From Eledone cirrhosa (lineage: Eukaryota): a stretch of DNA of 64,000 bases. The DNA is taken from positions 372,001 to 436,000 of the forward strand of contig CAXHJY010000973.1 of the NCBI GenBank assembly GCA_964016885.1. Direction: 5' to 3'. A program made the translations under genes and the position numbers. This document shows, piece after piece, positions 2,614-22,248 of this stretch. Position 1 is the stretch's first letter, and every line of letters starts with the position of its first letter. The notes beneath the pieces were generated by a model. The model searched no databases. It worked only from the letters and a program-made list of their open reading frames with translations, and had not been told where the DNA came from.

Positions 2614-3432
2614 AGTTGGGGTGGTGTGTAGACTGTTGGGGTGGTGTGTAGACTGTTCGGGTGGTGTGTAGACTGTTGGGGAGGTGTGTAGACTGTTGGG
2701 GAGGTGTGTAGACTGTTGGGGTGGTGTGTAGACTGTTGGGGTGGTGTGTAGACTGTTGGGGTGGTGTGTAGACTGTTGGGGTGGTGTGTAGACTGTTGGG
2801 GTGGTGTGTAGACTGTTGGGGTGGTGTGTAGACTGTTGGGGTGGTGTGTAGACTGTTGGGGAGGTGTGTAGACTGTTGGGGAGGTGTGTAGACTGTTGGG
2901 GAGGTGTGTAGACTGTTGGGGTGGTGTGTAGACTGTTGGGGAGGTGTGTAGACTGTTCGGGTGGTGTGTAGACTGTTCGGGTGGTGTGTAGACTGTTGGG
3001 GTGGTGTGTAGACTGTTGGGGTGTTGTGTAGAGTGTTGGGGTGGTGTGTAGACTGTTGGGGTGGTGTGTAGACTGTTGGGGTGGTGTGTAGACTGTTGGG
3101 GAGGTGTGTAGACTGTTGGGGAGGTGTGTAGACTGTTGGGGAGGTGTGTAGACTGTTGGGGTGGTGTGTAGACTGTTGGGGTGGTGTGTAGACTGTTGGG
3201 GAGGTGTGTAGACTGTTGGGGAGGTGTGTAGACTGTTCGGGTGGTGTGTAGACTGTTGGGGTGGTGTGTAGACTGTTGGGGTGGTGTGTAGACTGTTGGG
3301 GTGGTGTGTAGACTGTTGGGGTGGTGTGTAGACTGTTGGGGTGGTGTGTAGACTGTTGGGTAGTGTGTAGACTGTTGGGGTAGTGTGTAGACTGTTGGGG
3401 TGGTGTGTAGACTGTTGGGGAGGTGTGTAGAC
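2614..3432 (+). repeat. 20-bp G-rich minisatellite G(T/A)GGTGTGTAGACTGTTGGG, ~41 copies, intronic
   Basis: Directly visible 20-bp period; source of the spurious 311-aa ORF 2572-3507. Confidence 0.97.
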
Positions 3433-4520: not shown

Positions 4521-5928
4521 TATTGTTAGATGGAACTGACCGTGGTCATTGGAACACTTTGGCTGCCTCATGTGTCTCAAGATGTAGGATATATTGTTAG
4601 ATGGAACTGACCGTGGTCATTGGAACACTTTGGCTGCCTCATGTGTCTCAAGATGTAGGATATATTGTTAGATGGAACTGACCGTGGTCATTGGAACACT
4701 TTGGCTGCCTCATGTGTCTCAAGATGTAGGATATATTGTTAGATGGAACTGACCGTGGTCATTGGAACACTTTGGCTGCCTCATGTGTCTCAAGATGTAG
4801 GATATATTGTTAGATGGAACTGACCGTGGTCATTGGAACACTTTGGCTGCCTCATGTGTCTCAAGATGTAGGATATATTGTTAGATGGAACTGACCGTGG
4901 TCATTGGAACACTTTGGCTGCCTCATGTGTCTCAAGATGTAGGATATATTGTTAGATGGAACTGACCGTGGTCATTGGAACACTTTGGCTGCCTCATGTG
5001 TCTCAAGATGTAGGATATATTGTTAGATGGAACTGACCGTGGTCATTGGAACACTTTGGCTGCCTCATGTGTCTCAAGATGTAGGATATATTCATAGATT
5101 GAACTGACCGTGGTCATTGGAACACTTTCGCTGCCTCATGTGTCTCAAGATGTAGGATATATTCATAGATTGAACTGACCGTGGTCATTGGAACACTTTC
5201 GCTGCCTCATGTGTCTCAAGATGTAGGATATATTGTTAGATGGAACTGACCGTGCTCATTAGAACACTTTGGCTGCCTCATGTGTCTCAAGATGTAGGAT
5301 ATATTGATAGATGGAACTGACCGTGCTCATTAGAACACTTTGGCTGCCTCATGTGTCTCAAGATGTAGGATATATTCATAGATGGAACTGACCGTGGTCA
5401 TTGGAACACTTTGGCTGCCTCATGTGTCTCAAGATGTAGGATATATTGTTAGATGGAACTGACCGTGGTCATTGGAACACTTTGGCTGCCTCATGTGTCT
5501 CAAGATGTAGGATATATTGTTAGATGGAACTGACCGTGGTCATTGGAACACTTTGGCTGCCTGTGTCTCAAGATGTAGGATATATCGTTAGATGGAACTG
5601 ACTGTGGTCATTGGAACACTTTAGCTGCCTCATGTGTCTCAAGATGTAGGATATATTGTTAGATGGAACTGACCGTGGTCATTGGAACACTTTGGCTGCC
5701 TCATGTGTCTCAAGATGTAGGATATATTGTTAGATGGAACTGACCGTGCTCATTGGAACACTTTGGCTGCCTCATGTGTCTCAAGATGTAGGATATATTC
5801 ATAGATGGAACTGACCGTGGTCATTGGAACACTTTGGCTGCCTCATGTGTCTCAAGATGTAGGATATATTGTTAGATGGAACTGACCGTGGTCATTGGAA
5901 CACTTTGGCTGCCTCATGTGTCTCAAGA
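4521..5928 (+). repeat. 71-bp tandem array (~20 copies) derived from an RTE-like LINE C-terminus
   Basis: Unit TATTGTTAGATGGAACTGACCGTGGTCATTGGAACACTTTGGCTGCCTCATGTGTCTCAAGATGTAGGATA. The last copy reads through to DGTDRGHWNTLAASCVSRHKSF* (stop 5941-5943), like RTE ends A.DR..W..L.AA.C..RH. Confidence 0.9.
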
Positions 5929-6200
5929 CACAAGAGCTTCTAAATCAAGGTAAGTCATGTTGGTACACTAAAAAGCCCACCTCCCAATCAGAAGGTCCTA
6001 AGTTCTAACCCTACATTTATCTCCCTATAAATAATTATTTCTCCAAAGTAACTCGCACGTTTTAATCCCGTATAAAGAAAGTTTATGTAATTATATCTCA
6101 GAAATATATTTTTTAAATATCATTTTCATTTTTAATCACTTCCATATGCCAGTAATCAACATAGACTATAAGGTTTCTCTTATGAAAATCATTAATTTAT

Positions 6201-6350
6201 CTTCTTCACCCACTTATTCCTGAGAGGGTTGTGGGGTCAGAGTCTTGAAACACTCCTTCCAGTGGGTCCTGTCAGACATTGCTGTCACCAGTTGATCAGG
6301 CTGGATCCCCAAGCAAGACCAGCCAACCTCATGGATGTTATCCAACCATC
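6201..6350 (-). mobile_element. Second copy of the RTE 3' end (same family as 2144-2388)
   Basis: Clear nucleotide similarity: TATTCCTGA.AGGGT.GTGGGGTCAGAGTCTT...CTCATGGATGTTATC.AACCATC. Confidence 0.85.
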
Positions 6351-6584
6351 AATTTATCAAAACACAAATTTCCAAGTTTGCGTGATTGTTCATATACCCA
6401 GTAATCCTGGTATATATGACATAATTGCTGGCCTTGTGCCTAAGAAACCATTATTGATGGTACTGGTCCACTAATCCTGGACTCCTAAAACTAACTATGT
6501 CCAATGCTATAGCTGTCATTATTGACAGCACTGGTCCACTAACCCTGGTATATATGGTATACCAATCCTGGACTCCTAAAACAA

Positions 6585-7047
6585 TTTACCGTAGGATATC
6601 CATTATGTCTGTTGTAGACAAGGTCTAATATAGGATCATACTGGACAGGCACCTTGACAATATCGCTGATGAAATCCTTCCTGAATCTCAGTGTGGCTTT
6701 AGAAATGTTAGGGAGACAACAGACATGATCTTTATGGTGAAACAGCTGCAGGAAAAATGTATTGAGCAGAGGCTGGACCTATATCAGATGTTTATTGATC
6801 TGACAAAGGCCTTTGATACAGTCAATAGAATTGCCCTGTGGAAGATTATGAAGAAACTTGGGACACAAATTTGTCTCTGAGTTGAGAGGTTTCAATGATG
6901 GAATGAAGGCAAGTGTTAATGTGGCTGGTAAGCTCTCTGATCCCATTGTGGTTCAAAATAGTGTTAAGCAAGAGGACATTCCAGCACCAACTCTGTTTGC
7001 GTTGTATTTTGCTATGGTTTTCTTGAAGCCTTTTGAAGGTTGCTCTG
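6585..7047 (+). mobile_element. RTE (BovB-like) LINE reverse transcriptase fragment, decayed
   Basis: YRRISIMSVVDKV*YRIILDR..ILPESQCGFR..TTDMIF.VKQLQEKCIEQ..FIDLTKAFDTVNR.ALWKIMKKLG..VKQEDIPAPTLF. Confidence 0.92.
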
Positions 7048-9814
7048 CACTGCATCTTTAAAACCTCCATGGAACAAACTACGTGCATCAGTTGTTAGCT
7101 GTCGAGACACTGCATCCTTTAAAACCTCCATGGAACAAACTACCTGCATCAGTTGTTAGCTGTCGAGACACTGCATCCTTTAAAACCTCCATGGAACAAA
7201 CTACCTGCATCAGTTGTTAGCTGTCGAGACACTGCATCCTTTAAAACCTCCATGGAACAAACTACCTGCATCAGTTGTTAGCTGTCGAGACACTGCATCC
7301 TTTAAAACCTCCATGGAACAAACTACCTGCATCAGTTGTTAGCTGTCGAGACACTGCATCTTTAAAACCTCCATGGAACAAACTACCTGCATCAGTTGTT
7401 AGCTGTCGAGACACTGCATCCTTTAAAACCTCCATGGAACAAACTACGTGCATCAGTTGTTAGCTGTCGAGACACTGCATCCTTTAAAACCTCCATGGAA
7501 CAAACTCCCTGCATCAGTTGTTAGTTGTCGAGACACTGCATCCTTTAAAACCTCCATGGAACAAACTACGTGCATCAGTTGTTAGCTGTCGAGACACTGC
7601 ATCCTTTAAAACCTCCATGGAACAAACTACCTGCATCAGTTGTTAGTTGTCCAGACACTGCATCCTTTAAAACCACCATGGAACAAACTACCTTCATCAG
7701 TTGTTAGTTGTCCAGAGACTGCATCCTTTAAAACCTCCATGGAACAAACTACCTGCATCAGTTGTTAGCTGTCGAGACACTGCATCTTTTAAAACCTCCA
7801 TGGAACAAACTACCTGCATCAGTTGTTAGCTGTCGAGACACTGCATCCTTTAAAACCTCTATGGAACAAACTACCTGCATCAGTTGTTAGCTGTCCAGAC
7901 ACTGCATCCTTTAAAACCTCCATGGAACACACTCCCTGCATCAGTTGTTAGCTGTCGAGACACTGCATCCTTTAAAACCTCTATGGAACAAACTACCTGC
8001 ATCAGTTGTTAGCTGTCGAGACACTGCATCCTTTAAAACCTCCATGGAACAAACTACGTGCATCAGTTGTTAGCTGTCGAGACACTGCATCTTTAAAACC
8101 TCCATGGAACAAACTACCTGCATCAGTTGTTAGCTGTCGAGACACTGCATCCTTTAAAACCTCCATGGAACAAACTACGTGCATCAGTTGTTAGCTGTCG
8201 AGACACTGCATCCTTTAAAACCTCCATGGAACAAACTCCCTGCATCAGTTGTTAGTTGTCGAGACACTGCATCCTTTAAAACCTCCATGGAACAAACTAC
8301 GTGCATCAGTTGTTAGCTGTCGAGACACTGCATCCTTTAAAACCTCCATGGAACAAACTACCTGCATCAGTTGTTAGTTGTCCAGACACTGCATCCTTTA
8401 AAACCACCATGGAACAAACTACCTTCATCAGTTGTTAGTTGTCCAGAGACTGCATCCTTTAAAACCTCCATGGAACAAACTACCTGCATCAGTTGTTAGC
8501 TGTCGAGACACTGCATCTTTTAAAACCTCCATGGAACAAACTACCTGCATCAGTTGTTAGCTGTCGAGACACTGCAACCTTTAAAACCTCTATGGAACAA
8601 ACTACCTGCATCAGTTGTTAGCTGTCCAGACACTGCATCCTTTAAAACCTCCATGGAACACACTCCCTGCATCAGTTGTTAGCTGTCGAGACACTGCATC
8701 CTTTAAAACCTCCATGGAACAAACTACCTGCATCAGTTGTTAGCTGTCGAGACACTGCATCCTTTAAAACCTCCATGGAACAAACTACCTGCATCAGTTG
8801 TTAGCTGTTGAGACACTGCATCCTTTAAAACCTCCATGGAACAAACTACGTGCATCAGTTGTTAGCTGTCGAGACACTGCATCTTTTAAAACCTCCATGG
8901 AACAAACTCCCTGCATCAGTTGTTAGCTGTCGAGACACTGCATCCTTTAAAACCTCCATGGAACAAACTACCTGCATCAGTTGTTAGCTGTCGAGACACT
9001 GCATACTTTAAAACCTCGATGGAACAAACTCCCTGCATCAGTTGTTAGCTGTCGAGACACTGCATCCTTTAAAATCTCCATGGAACAAACTCCCTGCATC
9101 AGTTGTTAGCTGTCGAGACACTGCATCCTTTAAAATCTCCATGGAACAAACTACCTTCATCAGTTGTTAGCTGTCGAGACACTGCATCCTTTAAAACCTC
9201 CATGGAACAAACTACCTGCATCAGTTGTTAGCTGTCGAGACACTGCATCCTTTAAAACCTCCATGGAACACACTCCCTGCATCAGTTGTTAGCTGTCGAG
9301 ACACTGCATCCTTTAAAACCTCCATGGAACAAACTACCTGCATCAGTTGTTAGCTGTCGAGACACTGCATCCTTTAAAACCTCCATGGAACAAACTACCT
9401 GCATCAGTTGTTAGCTGTCGAGACACTGCATCCTTTAAAACCTCCATGGAACACACTCCCTGCATCAGTTGTTAGCTGTCGAGACACTGCACCCTTTAAA
9501 ACCTCCATGGAACAAACTACCTGCATCAGTTGTTAGTTGTCGGGACACTGCATCCTTTAAAACCTCCATGGAACAAACTACTTGCATCAGTTGTTAGCTG
9601 TCCAGACACGGCATCCTTTAAAACCTCCATGGAACAAACCACCTGCAGCAGTTATTAGCTGTTGAGACACTGCATCCTTTAAAACCTCCATGGAACAAAC
9701 TACCAGCATCAGTTGTTAGCTGTCCAGACACTGCATCCTTTAAAACCTCCATGGAACAAACTACCTGCATCAGTTGTTAGCTGTCGAGACACTGCATCCT
9801 TTAAAACCTCCATG
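7048..9814 (+). repeat. 61-bp CR1-derived satellite, small array (~45 copies) within the probable NCAPH intron 1
   Basis: Monomer TGGAACAAACTACCTGCATCAGTTGTTAGCTGTCGAGACACTGCATCCTTTAAAACCTCCA. Contains an internal 12-mer duplication (variants recur 731 bp apart, e.g. 7271 vs 8002). Confidence 0.98.
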
Positions 9815-9993
9815 CTTCCTGAGATTTGCCAACACTGCACCTAATATTCCCCCTCCATACACACACATGTATATCATGACTCATACACTACTCACTTCCC
9901 TGACATTTGGATATTATTCTATGTACTATACATGCACCTTTAATGAGTTGTAGTGCACCTGAGCACTGTACACAATAATTTCATTATTATTAT
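9815..9993 (+). mobile_element. CR1 LINE 3' terminus contiguous with the array (..SMLPEICQHCT*, 3' UTR, (ATT)n tail)
   Basis: The last monomer continues CATGCTTCCTGAGATTTGCCAACACTGCACCTAA and ends TTTCATTATTATTAT. Confidence 0.9.
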
Positions 9994-10360
9994 AACTTCG
10001 TCACTTTCTGTACAGTAAGTCGTTAATTTTGGGTTTTCTTTTACAGTCGTTATATATACAGATCACATGTGTGTGTATATATATATAGACAGAGAGATTG
10101 ATAGATAGATGTGTGCAGATTGAACCCAAAATAATCAACCTTGACAATATTTTCGAGGTTTGACATTTTAGATAGAAACATAAGAGATGTTTCATATAAC
10201 AAATATATATTAAATAGAAATACAGTGACATATATAATTAATTATTTCTAGGGAATCTATAAATATTATACACAACAAATATATAGTAAGAGAAAATATA
10301 CGATGAAATAAGTGACACATAACGGAGTGTATACATACATATATATACATACATATACAT

Positions 10361-10635
10361 ATAATGGGAGAGGAGGGGATTTAATTAAAATACTTATAAT
10401 CTACACAAAATAACATTACAAATGCTTAAATAACATAAATTGCTCGCGATTCTTTCAGAAGGATATACAAATAATTGACACATAACAGAGTGTATACACT
10501 CTATTTAAGCATTTGTAATATTATTTTGTGTAGATTATAAGTATTTTAATTAAATCCCCTCCTCTCCCGTTATATATATATATATATATATAACGGGAGA
10601 GGAGGGGATTTAATTAAAATACTTATAATCTACAC
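10361..10635. repeat. Forward-reverse-forward triplication, including a perfect ~108-bp palindrome (10528-10635) centred on (TA)n
   Basis: GGGAGAGGAGGGGATTTAATTAAAATACTTATAATCTACAC occurs at ~10366 (+), ~10528-10568 (-) and ~10595 (+). Confidence 0.9.
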
Positions 10636-10985: not shown

Positions 10986-11155
10986 GGTGGCGGATTGGCA
11001 GTAATTGGTCGAGCGTCGGACACCATGCTTTGTGGCATAGAGTTACGTCACTTTAGGTTCTGAGTTCAAATCCCGCCGAGGTGAGCTTCGCCTGTCATCC
11101 TTCGGAGCCGATAAAATAAAGTACCAGTAATACACTAGGGTGAATTTCATCTACT
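10986..11155 (+). mobile_element. Octopus tRNA-derived SINE (OK/Meta-domain-like)
   Basis: GGTGGCGGATTGGCAG head, B-box GAGTTCAAATCCCGCC, then CC..TCATCCTT.GG..CGATAAAATAAAGTACCAG. Confidence 0.85.
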
Positions 11156-11257
11156 TTACGTAAATCAGAAACTATATTTATATACTATCACAGTTATATA
11201 AATAACATTATAAATTGCTGATAATTCTTTCAGAATGAAAATATAAACACATATAAT

Positions 11258-11447
11258 ATAATTATTTCTACTTTGGGCACAAGGCCAGCAATTAACCAGT
11301 ACATTACTGGTACTTTATTTTATCGACCCCGTAAGGATGAAAGGCAAAGTTAACCTCGGCGGGATTTGAACTCAGAATGGCAAGGGCCGTAACTCTATGC
11401 GTCAAAGCATGGCGTCCGACCCTCTACAGATACTGCCAATCCACCAA
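11258..11447 (-). mobile_element. Same SINE family, full length
   Basis: Reverse complement of the head, GAGTTCAAATCCCGCCGAGGTTAACTTTGCCTTTCATCC body and GGCCTTGTGCC..AGTAGAAA tail. Confidence 0.88.
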
Positions 11448-12858: not shown

Positions 12859-13068
12859 TTCGTTTCTGAATTTGTTTAGCAAGATTCTTTATCTGAAAAC
12901 GTGTGTTGAAACCGATATTGTTATACTTTGGGAGGGTCATGTTGCCAATAAGAAACACACGCACCAGTTGCTTTCACTTCAATTTATTATAATAAATTTA
13001 TAAATTTAGGAATTAATAAATTTCCGGTTGGTTGGTTGGTTCCACAACCAGATGATTGTTTATATATT

Positions 13069-13111
13069 GTCAAAGTTCTTTCGTCGCACATTCTGTGACC
13101 TCTTCAGTGAC
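13069..13111 (-). ncRNA. Minimal hammerhead ribozyme motif (left arm)
   Basis: Mirror copy of 13708-13750. Confidence 0.6.
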
Positions 13112-13707
13112 TGGGGATTCTTTTCTTTGTTTTTGTGCCTCTCCTTTGTTCTGTCCTACGGCATCTTGTTTTTGTGTGTGTTGTGTGCTTAGTTTGCGCA
13201 TGTGTTACATCCGGGTGTCTGTGTGTGTTTATATTTGTTTATTTACATGTTACTGGTTGGTTGTTTGTTCTATGTGCGTGTGTGTTTTCATTTTGTCCTT
13301 AATTGTAAATTGTGATGTTGCTGTTCCATTCATGTTTTTTATTTAATTTGGGTTGGAGTTCATTTATGTTTATTGCCTCTGTGATTTGTCTAATTTGTCT
13401 AAAGACGCAATGTTTAGACAAATTACAGAGGCAATAAACATAAATGAACTCCAACCCAAATTAAATAGAAAACATGAATGGAACAGCAACATCACAATTT
13501 ACAATTAAGGACAAAATGAAAACACACACACACATAGAACAAACAACCAACCAGTAACATGTAAATAAACAAATAAATAAACAAATATAAACACACACAG
13601 ACACCCGGATGTAACACATGCGCAAACTAAGCACACAACACACACAAAAACAAGATGCCGTAGGACAGAACAAAGGAGAGACACAAAAACAAAGAAAAGA
13701 ATCCCCA

Positions 13708-13750
13708 GTCACTGAAGAGGTCACAGAATGTGCGACGAAAGAACTTTGAC
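13708..13750 (+). ncRNA. Minimal hammerhead ribozyme motif (right arm)
   Basis: guca-CUGAAGAG-guc-acagaaugugc-gac-GAAA-g-aa-c-UU-ugac. It has an extra core nucleotide and a tiny stem III, as in Penelope-type minimal hammerheads. Confidence 0.6.
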
Positions 13751-13989
13751 AATATATAAACAATCATCTGGTTGTGGAACCAACCAACCAACCGGAAATT
13801 TATAAATTCCTAAATTTATAAATTTATTATAATAAATTGAAGTGAAAGTAACTGGTGCGTGTGTTTCTTATTGGCAACATGACCCTCCCAAAGTATAACA
13901 ATATATATATATATATATGCCCCACCTCTATGTCACTGTCTGTTTAGAATAACAGGTACTACAAATAGATATGTTGTTACTCTATCTAT

Positions 13990-14385: not shown

Positions 14386-14630
14386 CACACCCGGATAAGC
14401 AATAAATCTGAAACTCATTTGTGTTAGTATATATTGTTTCCATTTGAAGGCCGCTGAACATGCTAGAAATAGCAGCCAAATCATGCTCTATTACGAGTCC
14501 CGCAAACTACTTTCCTATGGTCCGCAGCAGAAACATGTTTGTTAAATTAAATTAAATTTTAAAAGGAAAATTTGTTCCCCTAAATTTTGTACACATTCAC
14601 ACATCCCCCTTACTATTACAAACATTATTT

Positions 14631-14765
14631 TACGGCCCTTGCCATTCTGAGTACAAATCCCGCCGAGGTTAACTTTGCCTTTCATCCTTACGGGGTCGAT
14701 AAAATAAAGTACCAGTAATACACTGGGTATTTGCTGGCCTTGTGCCAATAGTAGAAACAATTATT
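14631..14765 (+). mobile_element. 5'-truncated SINE (OK/Meta-like)
   Basis: Body and tail nearly identical to 11258-11447. Confidence 0.85.
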
Positions 14766-14811
14766 TTTAGTGACTAAATAGATAACAGCCTATCAGCTAT
14801 ATTGTAGATTA

Positions 14812-15392
14812 AGTAGAATAACTTAACAAATATGTTTTAAATATATACATAAATAACATTACAAATGCTTAGATAACATGTGGATAGACAGTATCGGTAG
14901 AGGGTTGGGCGCCATGCTTTGAAGCATAGAGTTACCTCCCTTTATGATCTGAGTTCAAATCCCGCTGAGGTTAACTTTGCCTTTCATCCTTACGGGGTCG
15001 ATAAAGTACCAGTAATGTACTGGGATAATTGCTGGCCTGGTGCCAAAAGTAGAAACAATTATAAATTGCTCGCGATTCTTTCAGAAGGATATATTCCTTT
15101 AATGTTACAATATTAAAGAAAATGTAAAGGAAGGGGTGAACACCAGAGCAAAAGACAGCAGCCATGAGTACTGGGCAACCTCTCTAATGATTTCTGAAGC
15201 AAACCAGCACACTCGCAGCGTTGCCTCGGGTGATGGCGAGGCTGATGCGCTGGAACAACCAACCGCCCTCGCGAGATTCGCCAGTTACCTCTATTAGGCG
15301 AGCTGCCAGTGAAGAGAGGAACCTCGCAGTCAGCGGCCCAACTTCCCCAAACGTCTCGAAAGCTACAGGCTGAAAAATTATAGATTAACATT
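14812..15392 (-). mobile_element. CRE-clade LINE 3' end (ORF stop at 15184) with AT-rich downstream region interrupted by a SINE
   Basis: FQPVAFETFGEVGPLTARFLSSLAARLIEVTGESREGGWLFQRISLAITRGNAASVLVCFRNH*, read in a different frame from the ORF-track call. Confidence 0.9.
14880..15062 (+). mobile_element. SINE (OK/Meta-like) inserted downstream of the CRE ORF end
   Basis: Full head, body and tail; the empty site is present in the paralogue at ~17450. Confidence 0.88.
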
Positions 15393-16172: not shown

Positions 16173-16447
16173 TGTTAATAGTAAAAAAATAGGTTATATA
16201 GAAGTATGTGTATGTATGTGTGTGTATTCTTTCTCCACCCAACTCTTTTTATCCCAATAACTTATTTTATTGCATCGCCCTAGCCTGAGGTATATGGTCT
16301 GTAATGTGAAGAAATACCTATGATGGCTAGTAGACCACTGATGACAGATAGTCCTGGCTTCCATTTCTAATTCTTCATTTTTATATATATCCTATTTGCA
16401 ACAACACAGCTCGCCATTTTTCATTTATATACATATATATATATATA

Positions 16448-16916
16448 AATATTAATTCAAAATATTAACAAAATAGATATTCTTGTGATCAAGTTTATTT
16501 CATTATACATATTTCAGAGGTACTGAGTTAACTTCAACAGTACGTCCTCAACTTCCTGTTGAAGTTAACTCAGTACCTCTGAAATATATATAATAAAATA
16601 TACTTGATCACAAGAATATCTATTTTGTTAATATTTTGAATTAATATTAATAACTCCGGAAAACCATACTATTGAGTGCTTCCAATCTATTGTAAAACTC
16701 ATTCTTTGATTTATTCATTGAACCTTGTTTAATCTTTAAATATATATATATACTGTATATATATGACTGAATCTTAACCATCTACTATGTCAGGCATCAT
16801 CTTATTTTATCTGATGAGGAAGTACTGTTGAAGTTAACTCAGTACCTCTGAAATATGTATAATAAAATATACTTGATCACAAGAATATCTATTTTGTTAA
16901 TATTTTGAATTAATAT
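16448..16916. mobile_element. Third Penelope-like unit: inverted pair (16448-16540 / 16557-16648) plus a tandem copy (~16803-16916), bounded by (TA)n
   Basis: Three copies of CTGTTGAAGTTAACTCAGTACCTCTGAAATAT..CTTGATCACAAGAATATCTATTTTGTTAATATTTTGAATTAATAT. Confidence 0.7.
16803..16869 (+). ncRNA. Minimal type I hammerhead ribozyme motif
   Basis: uauuuuau-CUGAUGA-ggaaguacug-loop-caguaccucu-GAAA-uaugua-UA-auaaaaua; 8-bp stem I and a near-palindromic stem III (tatata in the sister copy). Confidence 0.75.
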
Positions 16917-17384: not shown

Positions 17385-17828
17385 AGTAGAATAACATAAC
17401 AAATATGTTTTAAATATATACATAAATAACATTACACATGCTTAGATAACATTATAAATTGCCCGCGATTCTTTCAGAAAGATATATTCCTTTAATGCTG
17501 CAATATTAAAGAAAATGTAAAGGAAGGGGTGAACAACGGAGCCAACACCAGAGCAAAAGACAGCAACGAGGGATGTCGGGCAACCTCTCTAATGATTTCT
17601 GAGGCAAGCCAGCACCCTGGCAGTGTTACCTCGGGTGATATATAGCCGGGCAACTTCTCTAATGATTTCTGAGGCAAGCCAGCACACTGGAGCTGTTACC
17701 TCGGGTGATATATAGCCGGGCAACCTCTCTAATGATTTCTGAGGCAAGCCAGCACACTGGCAGTGTTACCTCGGGTGATGGCGAGGCTGAGGCGCTGGAA
17801 CAACCAAGTGCCCTCGCGAGATAACCAG
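17385..17828 (-). mobile_element. CRE-clade LINE 3' end, paralogue of 14812-15392, with a 70-bp terminal segment in three tandem copies
   Basis: GGGCAAC.TCTCTAATGATTTCTGAGGCAAGCCAGCAC starts at 17578, 17648 and 17718; encodes REGTWLFQRLSLAITRGNTASVLACLRNH*. Confidence 0.88.
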
Positions 17829-18683: not shown

Positions 18684-18898
18684 TGTTGTTAGCTGTCAGG
18701 ACACGGCATCCTTCAAAACTTCTATGCTTCTCGAAATTTGCCAACACTACACGTGATATCCCCCCCATGCACGCATGTGTGTGTCTATCATGACTCATAC
18801 ACTGTTGACTTTCCTGACATTTGTACATTATTCTATGTACCATTCATGCGCCTTTGATGAGTTGTAGTGCACCTGAGCACTGTACACAATTCTTTTCA
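18684..18898 (+). mobile_element. 5'-truncated CR1 copy with a single, unamplified partial monomer
   Basis: TGTTGTTAGCTGTCAGGACACGGCATCCTTCAAAACTTCTATGCTTCTCGAAATTTGCCAACACTACAC followed by the 3' UTR. Confidence 0.88.
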
Positions 18899-19094: not shown

Positions 19095-19835
19095 TGGAGA
19101 CTCCCTCTAATACTTGGAGGCAAGCCAACACACTAGTAGCATTACAGCGAGTGATGGCGAGACTAAGTCACTGGAACAACCAAGTACCCTCACCAAGGGG
19201 CACCACCTGACACCTCAGTAAGGCCGGATGATAGCGTGGCTAAATCACTGGAACAAGCAAGCACCCTCACCAGGAACATTACCTGACACTTCAGTAAGGC
19301 CGAGTGATAGCGTGGCTAAGTCACTGGAACAACCAAGTACCCTCACCAATAGCATTAGCTGACACTTCAGTAAGGCTGGGTGATAGCGAGGCTAAGTCAC
19401 TGGAACAACCAAGCGCCCTCACCAGGAGCATTACCTGATACCTTGGTAAGCTGCCATCGATGACAAGAACTCCATTGTCAGCAGCCCTGCTTCTCCAAAT
19501 GTCTTGGATGCCACAGACTGAAAAACAAAATAGTTTGTCAATAATTGCTGGTATTTTAGAATTTTATTCTGTCCAGCTACAGATACAGTGACCCTCACAT
19601 TTACTGCAGCATCCAGGATGTGGGAGGGAGTAAAGGAGTCACTGACTGTACTCTCCCAAATGAGACATCAACCTCTTACCCAGGGGTCAAAGAGTAAGAC
19701 CATCTGATCTCTTCCCATCAACCCTGGACAATCCAGCTGACCCCAGAATTTAGGGGATATTTACCTGAGCCAGGGCTTGCTTAATAATTAAGTTTAGCTA
19801 ATATGGCGAATGAAACGACCAGCAAGACCAACCAT
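19095..19835 (-). mobile_element. CRE-clade LINE remnant, restriction-like endonuclease domain, with four 76-77-bp tandem repeats at the C-terminus
   Basis: AGRFIRH..LNLIIKQALAQVNIP*IL..GLSRVDGKRSDGLTL..PWVRG*CLIWESTVSDSF..KYQQL..FQSVASKTFG; CTGGAACAA at 19171, 19248, 19324 and 19400. Confidence 0.9.
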
Positions 19836-19942
19836 GGAGACCTGTAGATAAACAAGTGAATATTGAACAAATGTTTGTTACTTACAGTCACTTCTTTTAT
19901 TGTTCTGTTTATTAATCGGTACTATTAGCATATATACACCTA

Positions 19943-20110
19943 GGATGGTGGATTGGCAGGATTGGTAGAGCGTTGGACAATATGCTTTGGCATAGAGTTA
20001 CAACCCTTTGCGTTCTGAGTTCAAATCCTGCAAAGGTTAACTTTGCCTTTCATCCTTACGGGATTGATAAAATAAAGTACCAGTAATGTACTGGAGTCAT
20101 ATATATCATT
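19943..20110 (+). mobile_element. SINE (OK/Meta-like)
   Basis: Head GGTGGATTGGCAG, B-box, and CTTTGCCTTTCATCC..GATAAAATAAAGTACCAG. Confidence 0.85.
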
Positions 20111-21003
20111 GTCATATATACACCAACCATATTGTTGGGGGACTGGCTCTTTGTCTGTGGCCTACCCAGTCTGGATGATTTCCACATCTCCATTGTGCTC
20201 AGGGTCGGAGCAGATGTTTGTGGAGGATCGAAATGTTGTTGTGGCAACCCCCATTCACAAATCTTCATGGATTGTCTGGCTGTCTGACTACTGGTCAATT
20301 CACTCACCATACTCAGCTGAACCTAATAATTATTTGAACCCTGGCCAGGGTCCTCATCTTAAATCTGGAGCTAACAGAATTGGGTAAAAGGTAAATGTCT
20401 CATTTGGGACGCCACAGTAATTCTTTTACTCCTTTCAACATCATCGATGCTGCGATGATGGTGAAGGTCCCTGCATCCATAGCCAAATGGAATAAATCTT
20501 AACCCTTTAGCATTCAAACCGGCCGTAACCGGCCAGAATTTTCTCACCTCTTTCTGTTCAAACCAACCCTAACTAGCCACTCATACTGATGTTAAAGTAT
20601 TGTTCTGAAAATAAATAATATCAAAATTCCATTCGATATTGTGTGAGATAATTATATAAGATAAAGCCTTTACTACAAAAATACAATAGTTTATTTAGAG
20701 TAATGTAAATGCTAAAGAGTTAAAATACCAACAATTATCAACTGTTTCTTTTTTTTCTTTTTCAGCTTGTGGCATTGAAGAAGTTTAAGAAAGCTGGGCC
20801 ACTGATAGCAGGGCGCTGGTCATTGATGGTGGCTGGACTTACCTACATGTGATGCTCATGAGGGTACTTGGTTATTCCAGTGTTTTAGTCTCACTATCAC
20901 CCAGCCTTACCAACATGTGATGATTCTCATGAGGGTACTTGGATGTTCCATTGTCTTAGTCTAGCTATCACTTGGCTTTACCTACATACCATGTGATGCT
21001 CTC
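20111..21003 (+). mobile_element. CRE-clade LINE remnant (zinc knuckle + endonuclease), interrupted by a MITE, with ~71-bp terminal tandem repeats
   Basis: GDWL..DFHISIVLRVGADVCGGSKCCCG..GQFTHHTQLNLII..WVKGKCLIWDATV..FQLVALKKF..EGTWLFQ. Confidence 0.85.
20503..20719. mobile_element. piggyBac-type MITE
   Basis: TTAA|CCCTTTAGCATT...AATGCTAAAGAG|TTAA terminal inverted repeats with a TTAA target duplication; removing it restores CRE continuity. Confidence 0.85.
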
Positions 21004-21020
21004 ATTATCTGTATACATCA

Positions 21021-21206
21021 CGGGTGGTGGATTGGCAGTATCGGTAGAGGGTTGGACGCCATGCTTTCCAGCATAGTTACATCCCTTTACAGTCTAAGTT
21101 CAAATCCCGCCGAGGTTAACTTTGCCTTTCATCCTTTCGGGGTTGATAAAATAAAGTACCCGTAATGTACTGGGTAATTGCTGGCCTTGTGCCTAAAGTA
21201 AAAACA
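21021..21206 (+). mobile_element. Full-length SINE with a 17-bp target-site duplication
   Basis: ATTATCTGTATACATCA at 21004-21020 and 21207-21223. Confidence 0.92.
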
Positions 21207-21988
21207 ATTATCTGTATACATCATATGTCGATACCATTGCAGTCTCCTCTCCTGTACATTTGACACCTCTTATACACAGCTTTTCTCTCTTTTATCCATA
21301 CTTTGTTCTTCTGACACATAAACATTGCACATCCTTTTAAGCATGCTTACTTCATTTCTCTCCAGCCTTCGCATGTCCTCTACATTCACTACACACGTCT
21401 CACTACCATGTAGCAACCTCTACATTCACTGCCCTTGCCTCACTAACATGTAGCATCACACATCCTCTACCATGTAAATTCACATATCCTCTACATTCAC
21501 TACCTATGTCTCACTACCATGTAGCAACCTCTACATTCACCACCCATGTCTCACTAATCATGTAGCATCACAACCTCTACATTCACTGCCCATGTAGCAT
21601 CACATATCCTCTCCATTCACTATTTGTCTTACTGCCATGTAGCATCACACAGGTGCCATTTCATTTGTAGAAATCCTTTTATTTTAACACAGGTAGTAGC
21701 TCCCTAAACCTGTTCCCACCTGTTCTTATTTTAGCTACTAAGTGTCTAGACCAACCACCTCCACTGCTAATTAGGCCACCTTGGTAACAGAAGCTATCAA
21801 CTATTTCTATCGTGCCTTCCTAGGATTGGAAGTTTTATTTCATTGATGCTTTTACTACCAACTATCCTTGAATCTTCTGCAAAATATAATATCTGTCTTT
21901 GGTTAGTCTGCCTTCTATCTCACTACACCTCTTGTGTATCTAAGATTTACATTGTGAACATTGTAGAGAGTTTCAGCCTACTCCTTTT
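21207..21988 (-). mobile_element. RTE-clade LINE fragment (PHD-like Cys cluster, RT end) with an internal ~40-bp tandem repeat at 21378-21650
   Basis: KGVG*NSLQCSQCKS*IHKRCS..IEIVDSFCYQGGLISSGGG..AKIRTG..FRELLP..(MLHGSETWAVNVE)n..DMRRLERNEVSMLKRMC..ERRLQWYRHM. Confidence 0.88.
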
Positions 21989-22061
21989 AATAATAATGAA
22001 AATTATTGTGTACAATGCTCAGGTGCACTACAACTCATCAATGGTGCATGTATAGTACATA
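21989..22061 (-). mobile_element. CR1 3' tail fragment, inverted relative to the adjacent CR1 body
   Basis: TAATAATAATGAAAATTATTGTGTACA..GCTCAGGTGCACTACAACTCATC is the reverse complement of 9920-9993. Confidence 0.88.
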
Positions 22062-22070
22062 CATTGAAGC

Positions 22071-22248
22071 CCTGGCAACTGACTTGGTAAACACCCACAA
22101 AATTATTAACCATCTAGACAACAACAACCCTGAGTACCTTTTTAATTTCCATGTGTCTAACACACGTGGGCATGCCTACAAAGTCAGAAAACAGCACAGC
22201 TCACATGACTTTCGGAAACATTTTTTCACGCTCAAAGTTGCTAAAGTA
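22071..22248 (+). mobile_element. CR1 LINE ORF2 C-terminal segment leading directly into the satellite
   Basis: LATDLVNTHKIINHL..LFNFHVSNTRGHAYKVRKQHSSHDFRKHFFTLKVAKV(W>*)NKLPASVV matches the CR1 signature TRGH..K......R..FF..RV...WN.LP..VV. Confidence 0.92.

Follow-up and report, generated by a model that had tools for sequence, protein, structure and literature searches.

In a 64,000-nucleotide stretch of octopod DNA (hereafter the window), a tandem array of a 61-bp unit runs into the 3′ end of a LINE (positions 7048–9993), and the unit itself is coding sequence of that LINE. An earlier note on this DNA had described this array-plus-LINE-tail structure and proposed it as a retro-mobilised satellite; the structure is confirmed. 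As to its origin, we favor, at about an even chance, an explanation in which an existing satellite recombined into a resident CR1 copy, expanded in place and had its 5′ side cut by a deletion. The alternatives that the earlier note had weighed do not include such a docking, in which the 61 bp common to satellite and LINE would join incoming satellite DNA to a CR1 copy already in place. The likelihoods given here to all readings are judgements and not computed values.

Tandem Repeats Finder (TRF) assigns the small array (7048–9814) a period of 61 bp, 45.4 copies and 95% matches. We cut this array and a larger array of the same unit into monomers, using the last monomer of the small array as the reference. 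The small array consists of a 21-bp partial unit (7048–7068, + strand) followed by 45 full 61-bp monomers (7069–9811, + strand), in the same register as the 685 units of the large array, so the monomer boundaries of the two arrays are the same, as originally claimed. The partial unit, which spans unit positions 40–61 with one C missing, is the 5′ breakpoint, and its 1-bp deletion is also present in monomers 5 and 17. Eleven of the 45 monomers are identical in sequence to the last one. In addition, the array contains a recent in-place duplication of a 12-monomer block (7313–8774, + strand), the two copies of which (7313–8043 and 8044–8774) have only 3 differences in 731 bp, indicating that part of the length of the small array was gained locally and recently.

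At its 3′ side, the last monomer is contiguous with the native ORF2 end (MLPEICQHCT plus stop, ten codons; 9812–9844, + strand), the LINE 3′ UTR (9845–9982, + strand, from folding and tail comparison), and an (ATT)n tail (CATTATTATTAT, 3.7 units; 9983–9993, + strand) that ends at 9993. A small hairpin at about 9952–9967, just before the tail, appears in both the MFE and the centroid folds, while folding of the unit and the UTR gave z-scores without significance (whole region, −0.31 and −0.71). The 3′ end matches four other LINE tails in the window at 83–95%. The earlier characterization of this 3′ end as intact and complete holds in structure, the hairpin and tail being kept, but the end carries five substitutions (9827, 9837, 9891, 9910 and 9942) relative to the majority letters of public run X1, the contigs of organism A, and shows a 4-bp gap when aligned with another copy at 1–170.

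The parentage of the unit can be read from the large array. A 186-bp stretch (22062–22247, + strand) leads natively into the first monomer of that array and translates, in frame with it, as the C-terminus of a LINE ORF2. The peptide of this head plus the unit has five homologs (P0001–P0005) among 17 candidates, at 69–75% amino-acid identity, the only named one being from Octopus sinensis, and all five extend beyond the unit into an ORF end resembling 9812–9844. As judged by translation, the monomer is the last ~20 codons of the ORF2 of a CR1-type LINE (WNKLPASVVSCRDTASFKTS), with ATG at both ends. We take the parent to be probably a CR1 element because its C-terminal motifs look CR1-type; the RT domain of the parent lies outside the window, and the homologs carry no clade names. 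The label also draws on O. vulgaris, in which CR1 counts among the active LINE families (PMC13282606, Table 1). A stem-loop lies in the short 3′ UTR of the parent, which is followed by a simple-repeat tail; five such tails occur in the window, and the element is dispersed: 142 X1 contigs depart at 9993 into varied sequence.

The unit, ORF end and UTR are contiguous also in an older, unexpanded copy of this LINE end with one partial unit (18685–18890, + strand), and native ORF2 sequence upstream of 9751 is present in 77 X1 contigs and in 16,418 reads of X9, a RAD run from a second individual of organism A. Since ordinary copies carry unit, ORF end, UTR and tail in direct succession, a LINE tail at the end of the array is by itself no sign of mobility; any internal expansion of the unit yields an array that ends in the LINE tail, and every model predicts a tail at this place. 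The earlier picture of an array capped by a LINE 3′ end thus changes, since the monomer reads as the LINE coding sequence directly before the UTR and there is no separate element. At the protein level, the peptide of junction, unit and ORF end had no candidate in the 90% protein set, and none of its five matches among the 50% representatives has the junction plus the ORF end, three being ordinary LINE ends and two being translations of unrelated tandem repeats. Pattern scans for the junction in metagenome, GTDB and viral contigs gave 0 matches, which carries no weight, as octopod DNA is not to be expected in these collections.

The large array (22248–64000, + strand) comprises at least 685 monomers of the same 61-bp unit and runs off the window (TRF: period 61, 684.5 copies). 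Of its units, 653 of 685 have a length of 61, and the monomers average 3.3 differences each from the native unit. It lies 12.3 kb from the small array, in like orientation, and its ORF2 head is fused head-to-head with an inverted 74-bp LINE tail (21988–22061, − strand). Each array has an extended terminal unit, namely the 3′ LINE end on the small array and the 186 bp of 5′ ORF2 on the large array. A further LINE tail (1–170, + strand), whose preceding part is outside the window, matches the tail of the small array at 94.7%. The window also holds several long inverted repeats, with long palindromes near the small array, and other dispersed repeats in the window likewise form local tandem copies.

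In public sequencing data, the tandem junction is highly abundant in organisms A and B and was not seen in organism D. Eleven runs were listed for 6000–10300, and four of them, X1, X9, X4 (organism B) and X7 (organism D), were aligned on 9720–10320 at 88% likeness. The best runs are three contig sets from one sample of organism A, which hold 0.50–0.67 of the words of 6000–10300 and may be the source of the window. With the tandem junction required, summed depth at 9747 is 1.4 million in X1 and 2.4 million in X4; read naively, this would be on the order of 100,000 junctions in organism A, summed depth not being a copy number. Furthermore, 27 X1 contigs run on into the next monomer, 827 X9 reads go back 61, and the junction appears as a loose end in 37 contigs of organism B. 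In organism D, depth at 9747 is 0 for the tandem junction, with the native unit covered. Among the eight X1 contigs listed, from tables with 1029 loose ends and 37,889 pieces, one of 125 nt (9727–9851, 15 differences, depth 9) is a candidate second locus with junction, monomer and ORF end; its 24 letters left of the junction fall below the 31-letter bridging rule. Coverage in X4, X7 and X9 stops short of the 3′ flank, and neither an empty site nor an orthologous locus was seen. We rejected X9 for counting, because its reads begin in clusters at a small number of positions, which we take for restriction sites, and because it leaves the flank uncovered; we also rejected the monomer-to-UTR depth ratio as a measure of array size, because it drops similarly in organism D, which lacks the junction.

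The two arrays have both the junction and sequence variants in common. The ends of the unit carry the ATG microhomology and a 5-bp inverted repeat (fold z-score +0.91, no folding support). Head, unit and tail together make up 429 nt, in which 574 microhomology pairs of at least 3 nt could define units of 40–150 bp, and it is therefore unlikely that the same junction arose twice by chance. Twelve substitutions recur in the small array, each being present two or more times, and eight of them belong to the 18 most frequent ones of the large array (each in at least 35 of 685 monomers, out of 183 possible substitutions; hypergeometric P = 6.6 × 10−7), and for transversions alone the share is 4 of 7 recurrent in the small array, against 8 of 122 common in the large array (P = 2.6 × 10−4); both P-values assume independent variants and ignore mutation bias. 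Specifically, G17T, G36C and C40G occur together in 2 of 45 small-array and 24 of 685 large-array monomers, and T16A and G36C occur together in 1 of 45 and 20 of 685, respectively; in the large array, monomers of these two types are usually adjacent in a recurring block.

The shared junction and the shared variants make an independent origin of the small array unlikely, weakening the alternative of an independent in situ expansion that had been raised for it. We regard it as highly improbable, more so than any other reading considered here, that the same 61 bp expanded on its own inside a lone CR1 copy. Such an expansion would find a possible hot spot in the microhomology and inverted repeat at the unit ends, and it would suit the native-like base haplotype of the small array and the local tandem copies of other window repeats. 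Against it stand the many other microhomology pairs available in the 429 nt, the transversion haplotypes shared between the arrays, and the abundance of the same junction in two organisms.

Variant counts and local matching led us to reject the possibility that the small array was copied from the visible large array. C35T is present in 363 of 685 large-array monomers versus 2 of 45 small-array monomers, while C15G (7 of 45), A9C (4 of 45) and the 1-bp deletion (2 of 45) of the small array are each absent from all 685 monomers of the large array, and of 40 six-monomer windows of the small array compared with the large array, none gave a good match. Monomer pairs diverge by 4.3% within the small array, 8.9% within the large array, and 7.4% between them, and the native-like last monomer, matched exactly by 11 of 45 small-array monomers, is matched by 4 of 685 in the large array. 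The small array looks like a mixture of native-type units with a few satellite-type units. Its private variants amount to 0.95% of monomer positions, as compared with five substitutions in the 175-bp tail. Unit position 34 is T in the arrays of organism A and in 75% of X9 forward reads, and C in 90% of X4 depth and 98% of X7 depth. It could have pointed to two origins or to ongoing exchange but was left unused, because the native state of organism B is inseparable and T34C is also present in 55 of 685 large-array monomers.

On its 5′ side, the small array abuts an old, broken RT fragment of another LINE (6554–7047, + strand; Pfam RVT_1, E = 1e-7, one of four peptides scanned being significant), which is presumably RTE-like by its motifs and ends mid-domain at the array edge. 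In a tblastn search of 1–22400 with the best 120 of 1593 RT homologs, all 232 plus-strand matches fall within 6485–7049, three weak minus-strand matches lie upstream, and no match continues the fragment behind the tail, a search that a very decayed remainder could escape. Of the six homologs listed, two are short fragments and four extend 357–430 amino acids past the break. Target-primed reverse transcription begins at the 3′ end of an element; a LINE copy without its 3′ part indicates a deletion, the breakpoint of which coincides with the 5′ edge of the array. The array was said to start mid-monomer, without a CR1 5′ flank and fused to an RT fragment, and the 21-bp partial unit indeed abuts the RVT_1 piece directly.

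No target-site duplication (TSD) of at least 4 bp is flush with both array edges, in agreement with the earlier note, and the sole match, CACT, lies 8 bp beyond the tail. By eye, a 3-bp ACT match at the edges is possible, at chance level. For CR1/L2-clade inserts, the accessible part of one study reports TSD lengths peaking at 3–5 bp and long target truncations in 2 of 30 ZfL2-1 inserts in HeLa and rarely in DT40 (PMC4245944). The 3′ flank (9994–10320, unstranded) is not RT-like, and its X1 depth is ~13 at 10014–10055 and 10119–10320, much as for other single contigs (9–19 in seven of the eight listed), with one X1 contig having 0 other letters over 10116–10320. This depth is that of a single locus, and no second copy of the 3′ flank is seen in X1; the suggested alternative of DNA-level duplication accordingly loses ground in its flank-sharing form.

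The junction at 7047/7048 and the link across the array are known from the assembly alone, which leaves a very small chance that a repeat-mediated mis-join brought the RTE side and the tail side together from different loci. The incomplete word content of the best runs and the palindromes nearby would fit a mis-join. The array itself speaks against one, with its fine, regular variant structure and an edge unit that shares a variant with inner units, and the tail and flank are both covered in X1.

Possible, yet less likely than docking, is seeding through RNA, in which a LINE enzyme would have primed on the tail of an array-bearing RNA, the cDNA would have ended within the array, and a target-site deletion and expansion would have followed; alternatively, reverse transcription may have begun on a young CR1 RNA and jumped, at the 61 nt common to both, to a satellite RNA as template. 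The intact tail and UTR hairpin suit such an event, and stringent 3′-end recognition is described for such LINEs in the accessible text of one report (PMC3747384). So do the single-locus depth of the 3′ flank, with no duplicated flank, and the mid-monomer 5′ edge. The 125-nt X1 contig resembles a second locus running from the junction to the ORF end, but it could be the end of the large array itself. The source does not have to be the neighbouring array, of which the small array is no copy. In contrast, a clean 5′-truncated insertion would show the RT fragment resuming behind the tail, and neither such resumption nor a TSD is seen; long target truncations, as far as the accessible data on L2/CR1-type inserts go, are uncommon (PMC4245944). 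A chance landing 12 kb from an array of the same family would be unlikely unless copies exist in the thousands, and DNA-level exchange fits that proximity better.

The proposal of a retro-mobilised satellite therefore keeps part of its case, since two of its alternatives are weakened and the tail and hairpin are intact; it gains nothing from the tail, which is expected anyway, and lacks a TSD and RT resumption. As in a LINE-mobilised element, the 3′ end of the partner is intact, though native to the unit and hence not diagnostic, while neither a TSD nor uninterrupted host sequence on both sides was found. That the satellite, having kept the 3′ recognition end of its parent LINE, is re-seeded genome-wide by the reverse transcriptase of that LINE, from RNA of array plus tail or by template switching, each 5′-truncated copy founding a new array, we hold to be doubtful, slightly more so than RNA seeding at this locus.

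A local rearrangement without any docking would make the small array the severed 3′ end of an older unit of ORF2 head, array and tail, perhaps the founder of the large array itself; we think both the general form and this specific form improbable. The two arrays carry complementary pieces in like orientation, the head on the large array and the tail on the small, an inverted tail is fused to the head in a region with several long inverted repeats, and the 5′ edge is a deletion breakpoint, all of which a severed end would explain. However, the order is reversed, the tail piece lying upstream of the head piece, divergence in the small array is about half that in the large one, and the intervening flank is not seen duplicated in X1.

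Docking onto a resident CR1 end, the explanation we prefer, would have proceeded in several steps. A single slippage or unequal exchange at ATG would have founded the satellite now abundant in organisms A and B. At this locus, the CR1 3′ end would have been set by ordinary target-primed reverse transcription, given that the flank behind the tail is that of a single locus. Using the 61 bp in common, gene conversion or ectopic exchange may then have imported the tandem junction together with a few satellite-type monomers, after which local unequal exchange, which is seen for one block, would have lengthened the array, mostly with native-like units. Finally, a single deletion would have taken the 3′ part of the RTE element and the CR1 head of the array; one later event of this kind would account for the loss of the RTE end and the CR1 head, for the start within a monomer and for the absence of a TSD.

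This sequence of events, to which we give even chances, agrees with the mixture of monomers, the deletion at the 5′ edge, the 3′ flank at single-locus depth and the large array nearby, and homology-seeded spread of satellites is reported for Rsp-like clusters in the accessible part of a published study (PMC7403614). Several points weigh against docking. No donor satellite is seen, divergence is far higher in the visible large array, so that its 12-kb proximity may explain less than it seems, and the homology is limited to 61 bp. Docking also needs two events, docking and deletion, where retro-insertion with target deletion needs one, and the contrast in age between monomers and tail comes down to five changes and is equally expected if an aged source tail was copied. 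We propose no function for the small array, which is likely a product of neutral repeat turnover.

Satellites derived from transposable elements are already known as a kind, and the unit here is retroposon-internal, forms long, uniform head-to-tail arrays, and has an extended terminal unit. In the SINE-derived satellites sSat1–3 of scaled reptiles, as described in the accessible text (PMC10702118), the unit comes from the interior of a retroposon and has uniform boundaries from locus to locus, arrays have from a few to about 1000 units and are common to related species, and most have one extended terminal unit reaching the 5′ or 3′ end of the SINE. In that same text, the authors invoke unequal recombination and amplification, and no retro-mobilisation of arrays is shown. 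The LINE-tail anatomy described here parallels these satellites in its internal retroposon unit, uniform register and extended terminal unit, found on both arrays; in contrast to sSat1–3 as so described, the parent is a LINE, the unit is ORF2 coding sequence, and the host is an octopod.

Chicken has CR1-related satellites, the HinfI repeat and the CR1-C centromeric repeats, and the accessible parts of two reviews (PMC9659126, PMC6947457) also discuss dispersal of satellite monomers by LINE transduction as a possibility. According to these, the chicken satellites likewise contain the region of the CR1 ORF2 end and 3′ UTR, but there the CR1 piece is embedded in, or makes, a longer unit, whereas here the 61-bp ORF2 piece repeats alone and the UTR occurs once, at the end. 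For euchromatic Rsp-like and 1.688 clusters of Drosophila simulans and D. mauritiana, seeding at homologous repeats by interlocus conversion or circular DNA is described in the accessible text (PMC7403614). These clusters, with one constant and one variable junction, provide a model for docking; in Drosophila, where synteny demonstrated the events, the docking site is another satellite, and here it would be a dispersed LINE copy. The RNA-based model of the earlier note finds its likeness in SVA. SVA and other VNTR-bearing non-autonomous retroelements are tandem repeats carried by LINE machinery, and SVA possesses a 5′ part of its own and is dispersed in many copies with TSDs, two features not seen here.

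In the open-access literature, outside which most subscription papers lie, we found no description of this octopod satellite and none of a satellite mobilised by a LINE tail. Apparently, therefore, an abundant LINE-derived satellite of two related organisms is undescribed. The locus bears on the still open question of how satellites come to occupy new sites. Its unit has a precisely known ancestor, copies of the parent LINE are numerous and dispersed, and docking at the DNA level and seeding through RNA differ in their predictions for tail phylogeny, TSDs and distance to large arrays, so that one long-read assembly would test both. If RNA seeding is true, the small array would plainly exemplify the spread of a satellite by retrotransposition; if docking is true, every dispersed copy of the LINE would be a possible landing site for its own satellite.

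The native 61-bp unit, read at 9751–9814, carries the arms of a 5-bp inverted repeat at its two ends, which makes the tandem junction an 8-bp palindrome, TCCATGGA. Folding gave no significant signal. At unit position 34 (9784), T is present in the arrays of organism A and in most forward reads of its second individual (run X9), and C accounts for 90% of the depth in organism B (run X4) and 98% in organism D (run X7, which lacks the tandem junction). The satellite of organism B, in addition, carries T at 9810 in 88% of the depth. This distribution of variants at 9784 and 9810 may reflect species-specific homogenisation or exchange between the satellite and a resident LINE subfamily.

Monomer comparison across the large array (22248–64000) reveals irregular higher-order blocks. 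The best lags, 43–44, 27 and 56, differ from one part of the array to another, and one recurring block reads T16A,G36C / G4C,G17T,G36C,C40G / T28A / C11T. The variant C35T climbs along the array: it is carried by 14 of the 50 monomers in the head block and by 35–38 of 50 in most blocks past 43,600. At the head itself, an inverted 74-bp LINE tail is joined head-to-head, with no spacer, to the 5′-truncated ORF2 that leads into the array (21988–22247); insertion from two ends might have produced this fusion, or it may be the scar of a rearrangement. A further LINE tail, near-majority in sequence, occupies 1–170; it begins at the first base of the window, a few bases past the expected monomer end, and any array ahead of it would lie outside the window.

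A Haliotis rufescens 'zonadhesin-like' protein (P0126, XP_048249821.1) with a period of 61 aa shares 16 of 61 residues with the monomer translated through three frames, a level reached by 6 of 5000 shuffles. The entry may stem from misprediction of a 61-bp tandem repeat; as it is the top match drawn from 1.8 billion proteins, the likeness may be due to chance.

Four long inverted repeats, at 10528–10635 (108 bp, 100%), 10988–11446 (460 bp, 74%), 12915–13904 (1 kb, 95%) and 16444–16652 (209 bp, 92%), may be genuine fold-back elements or artefacts of the assembly. A dispersed repeat of ~190 bp, a putative octopod SINE-like family, has copies at 11256–11446, 14630–14767, 14880–15063, 19933–20094 and 21012–21211 that are 81–93% alike.

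Other tandem arrays in the window have units of 131 bp (×2, 891–1153), 20 bp (×41, 2615–3432), 71 bp (×19.9, 4521–5928, and ×2.2, 20838–20987), 70 bp (×2.9, 17577–17779) and 76 bp (×3.8, 19148–19438). Because the window also contains dispersed copies of the 70- and 76-bp units, internal tandem expansion of dispersed repeats seems to be common in the Eledone cirrhosa genome.
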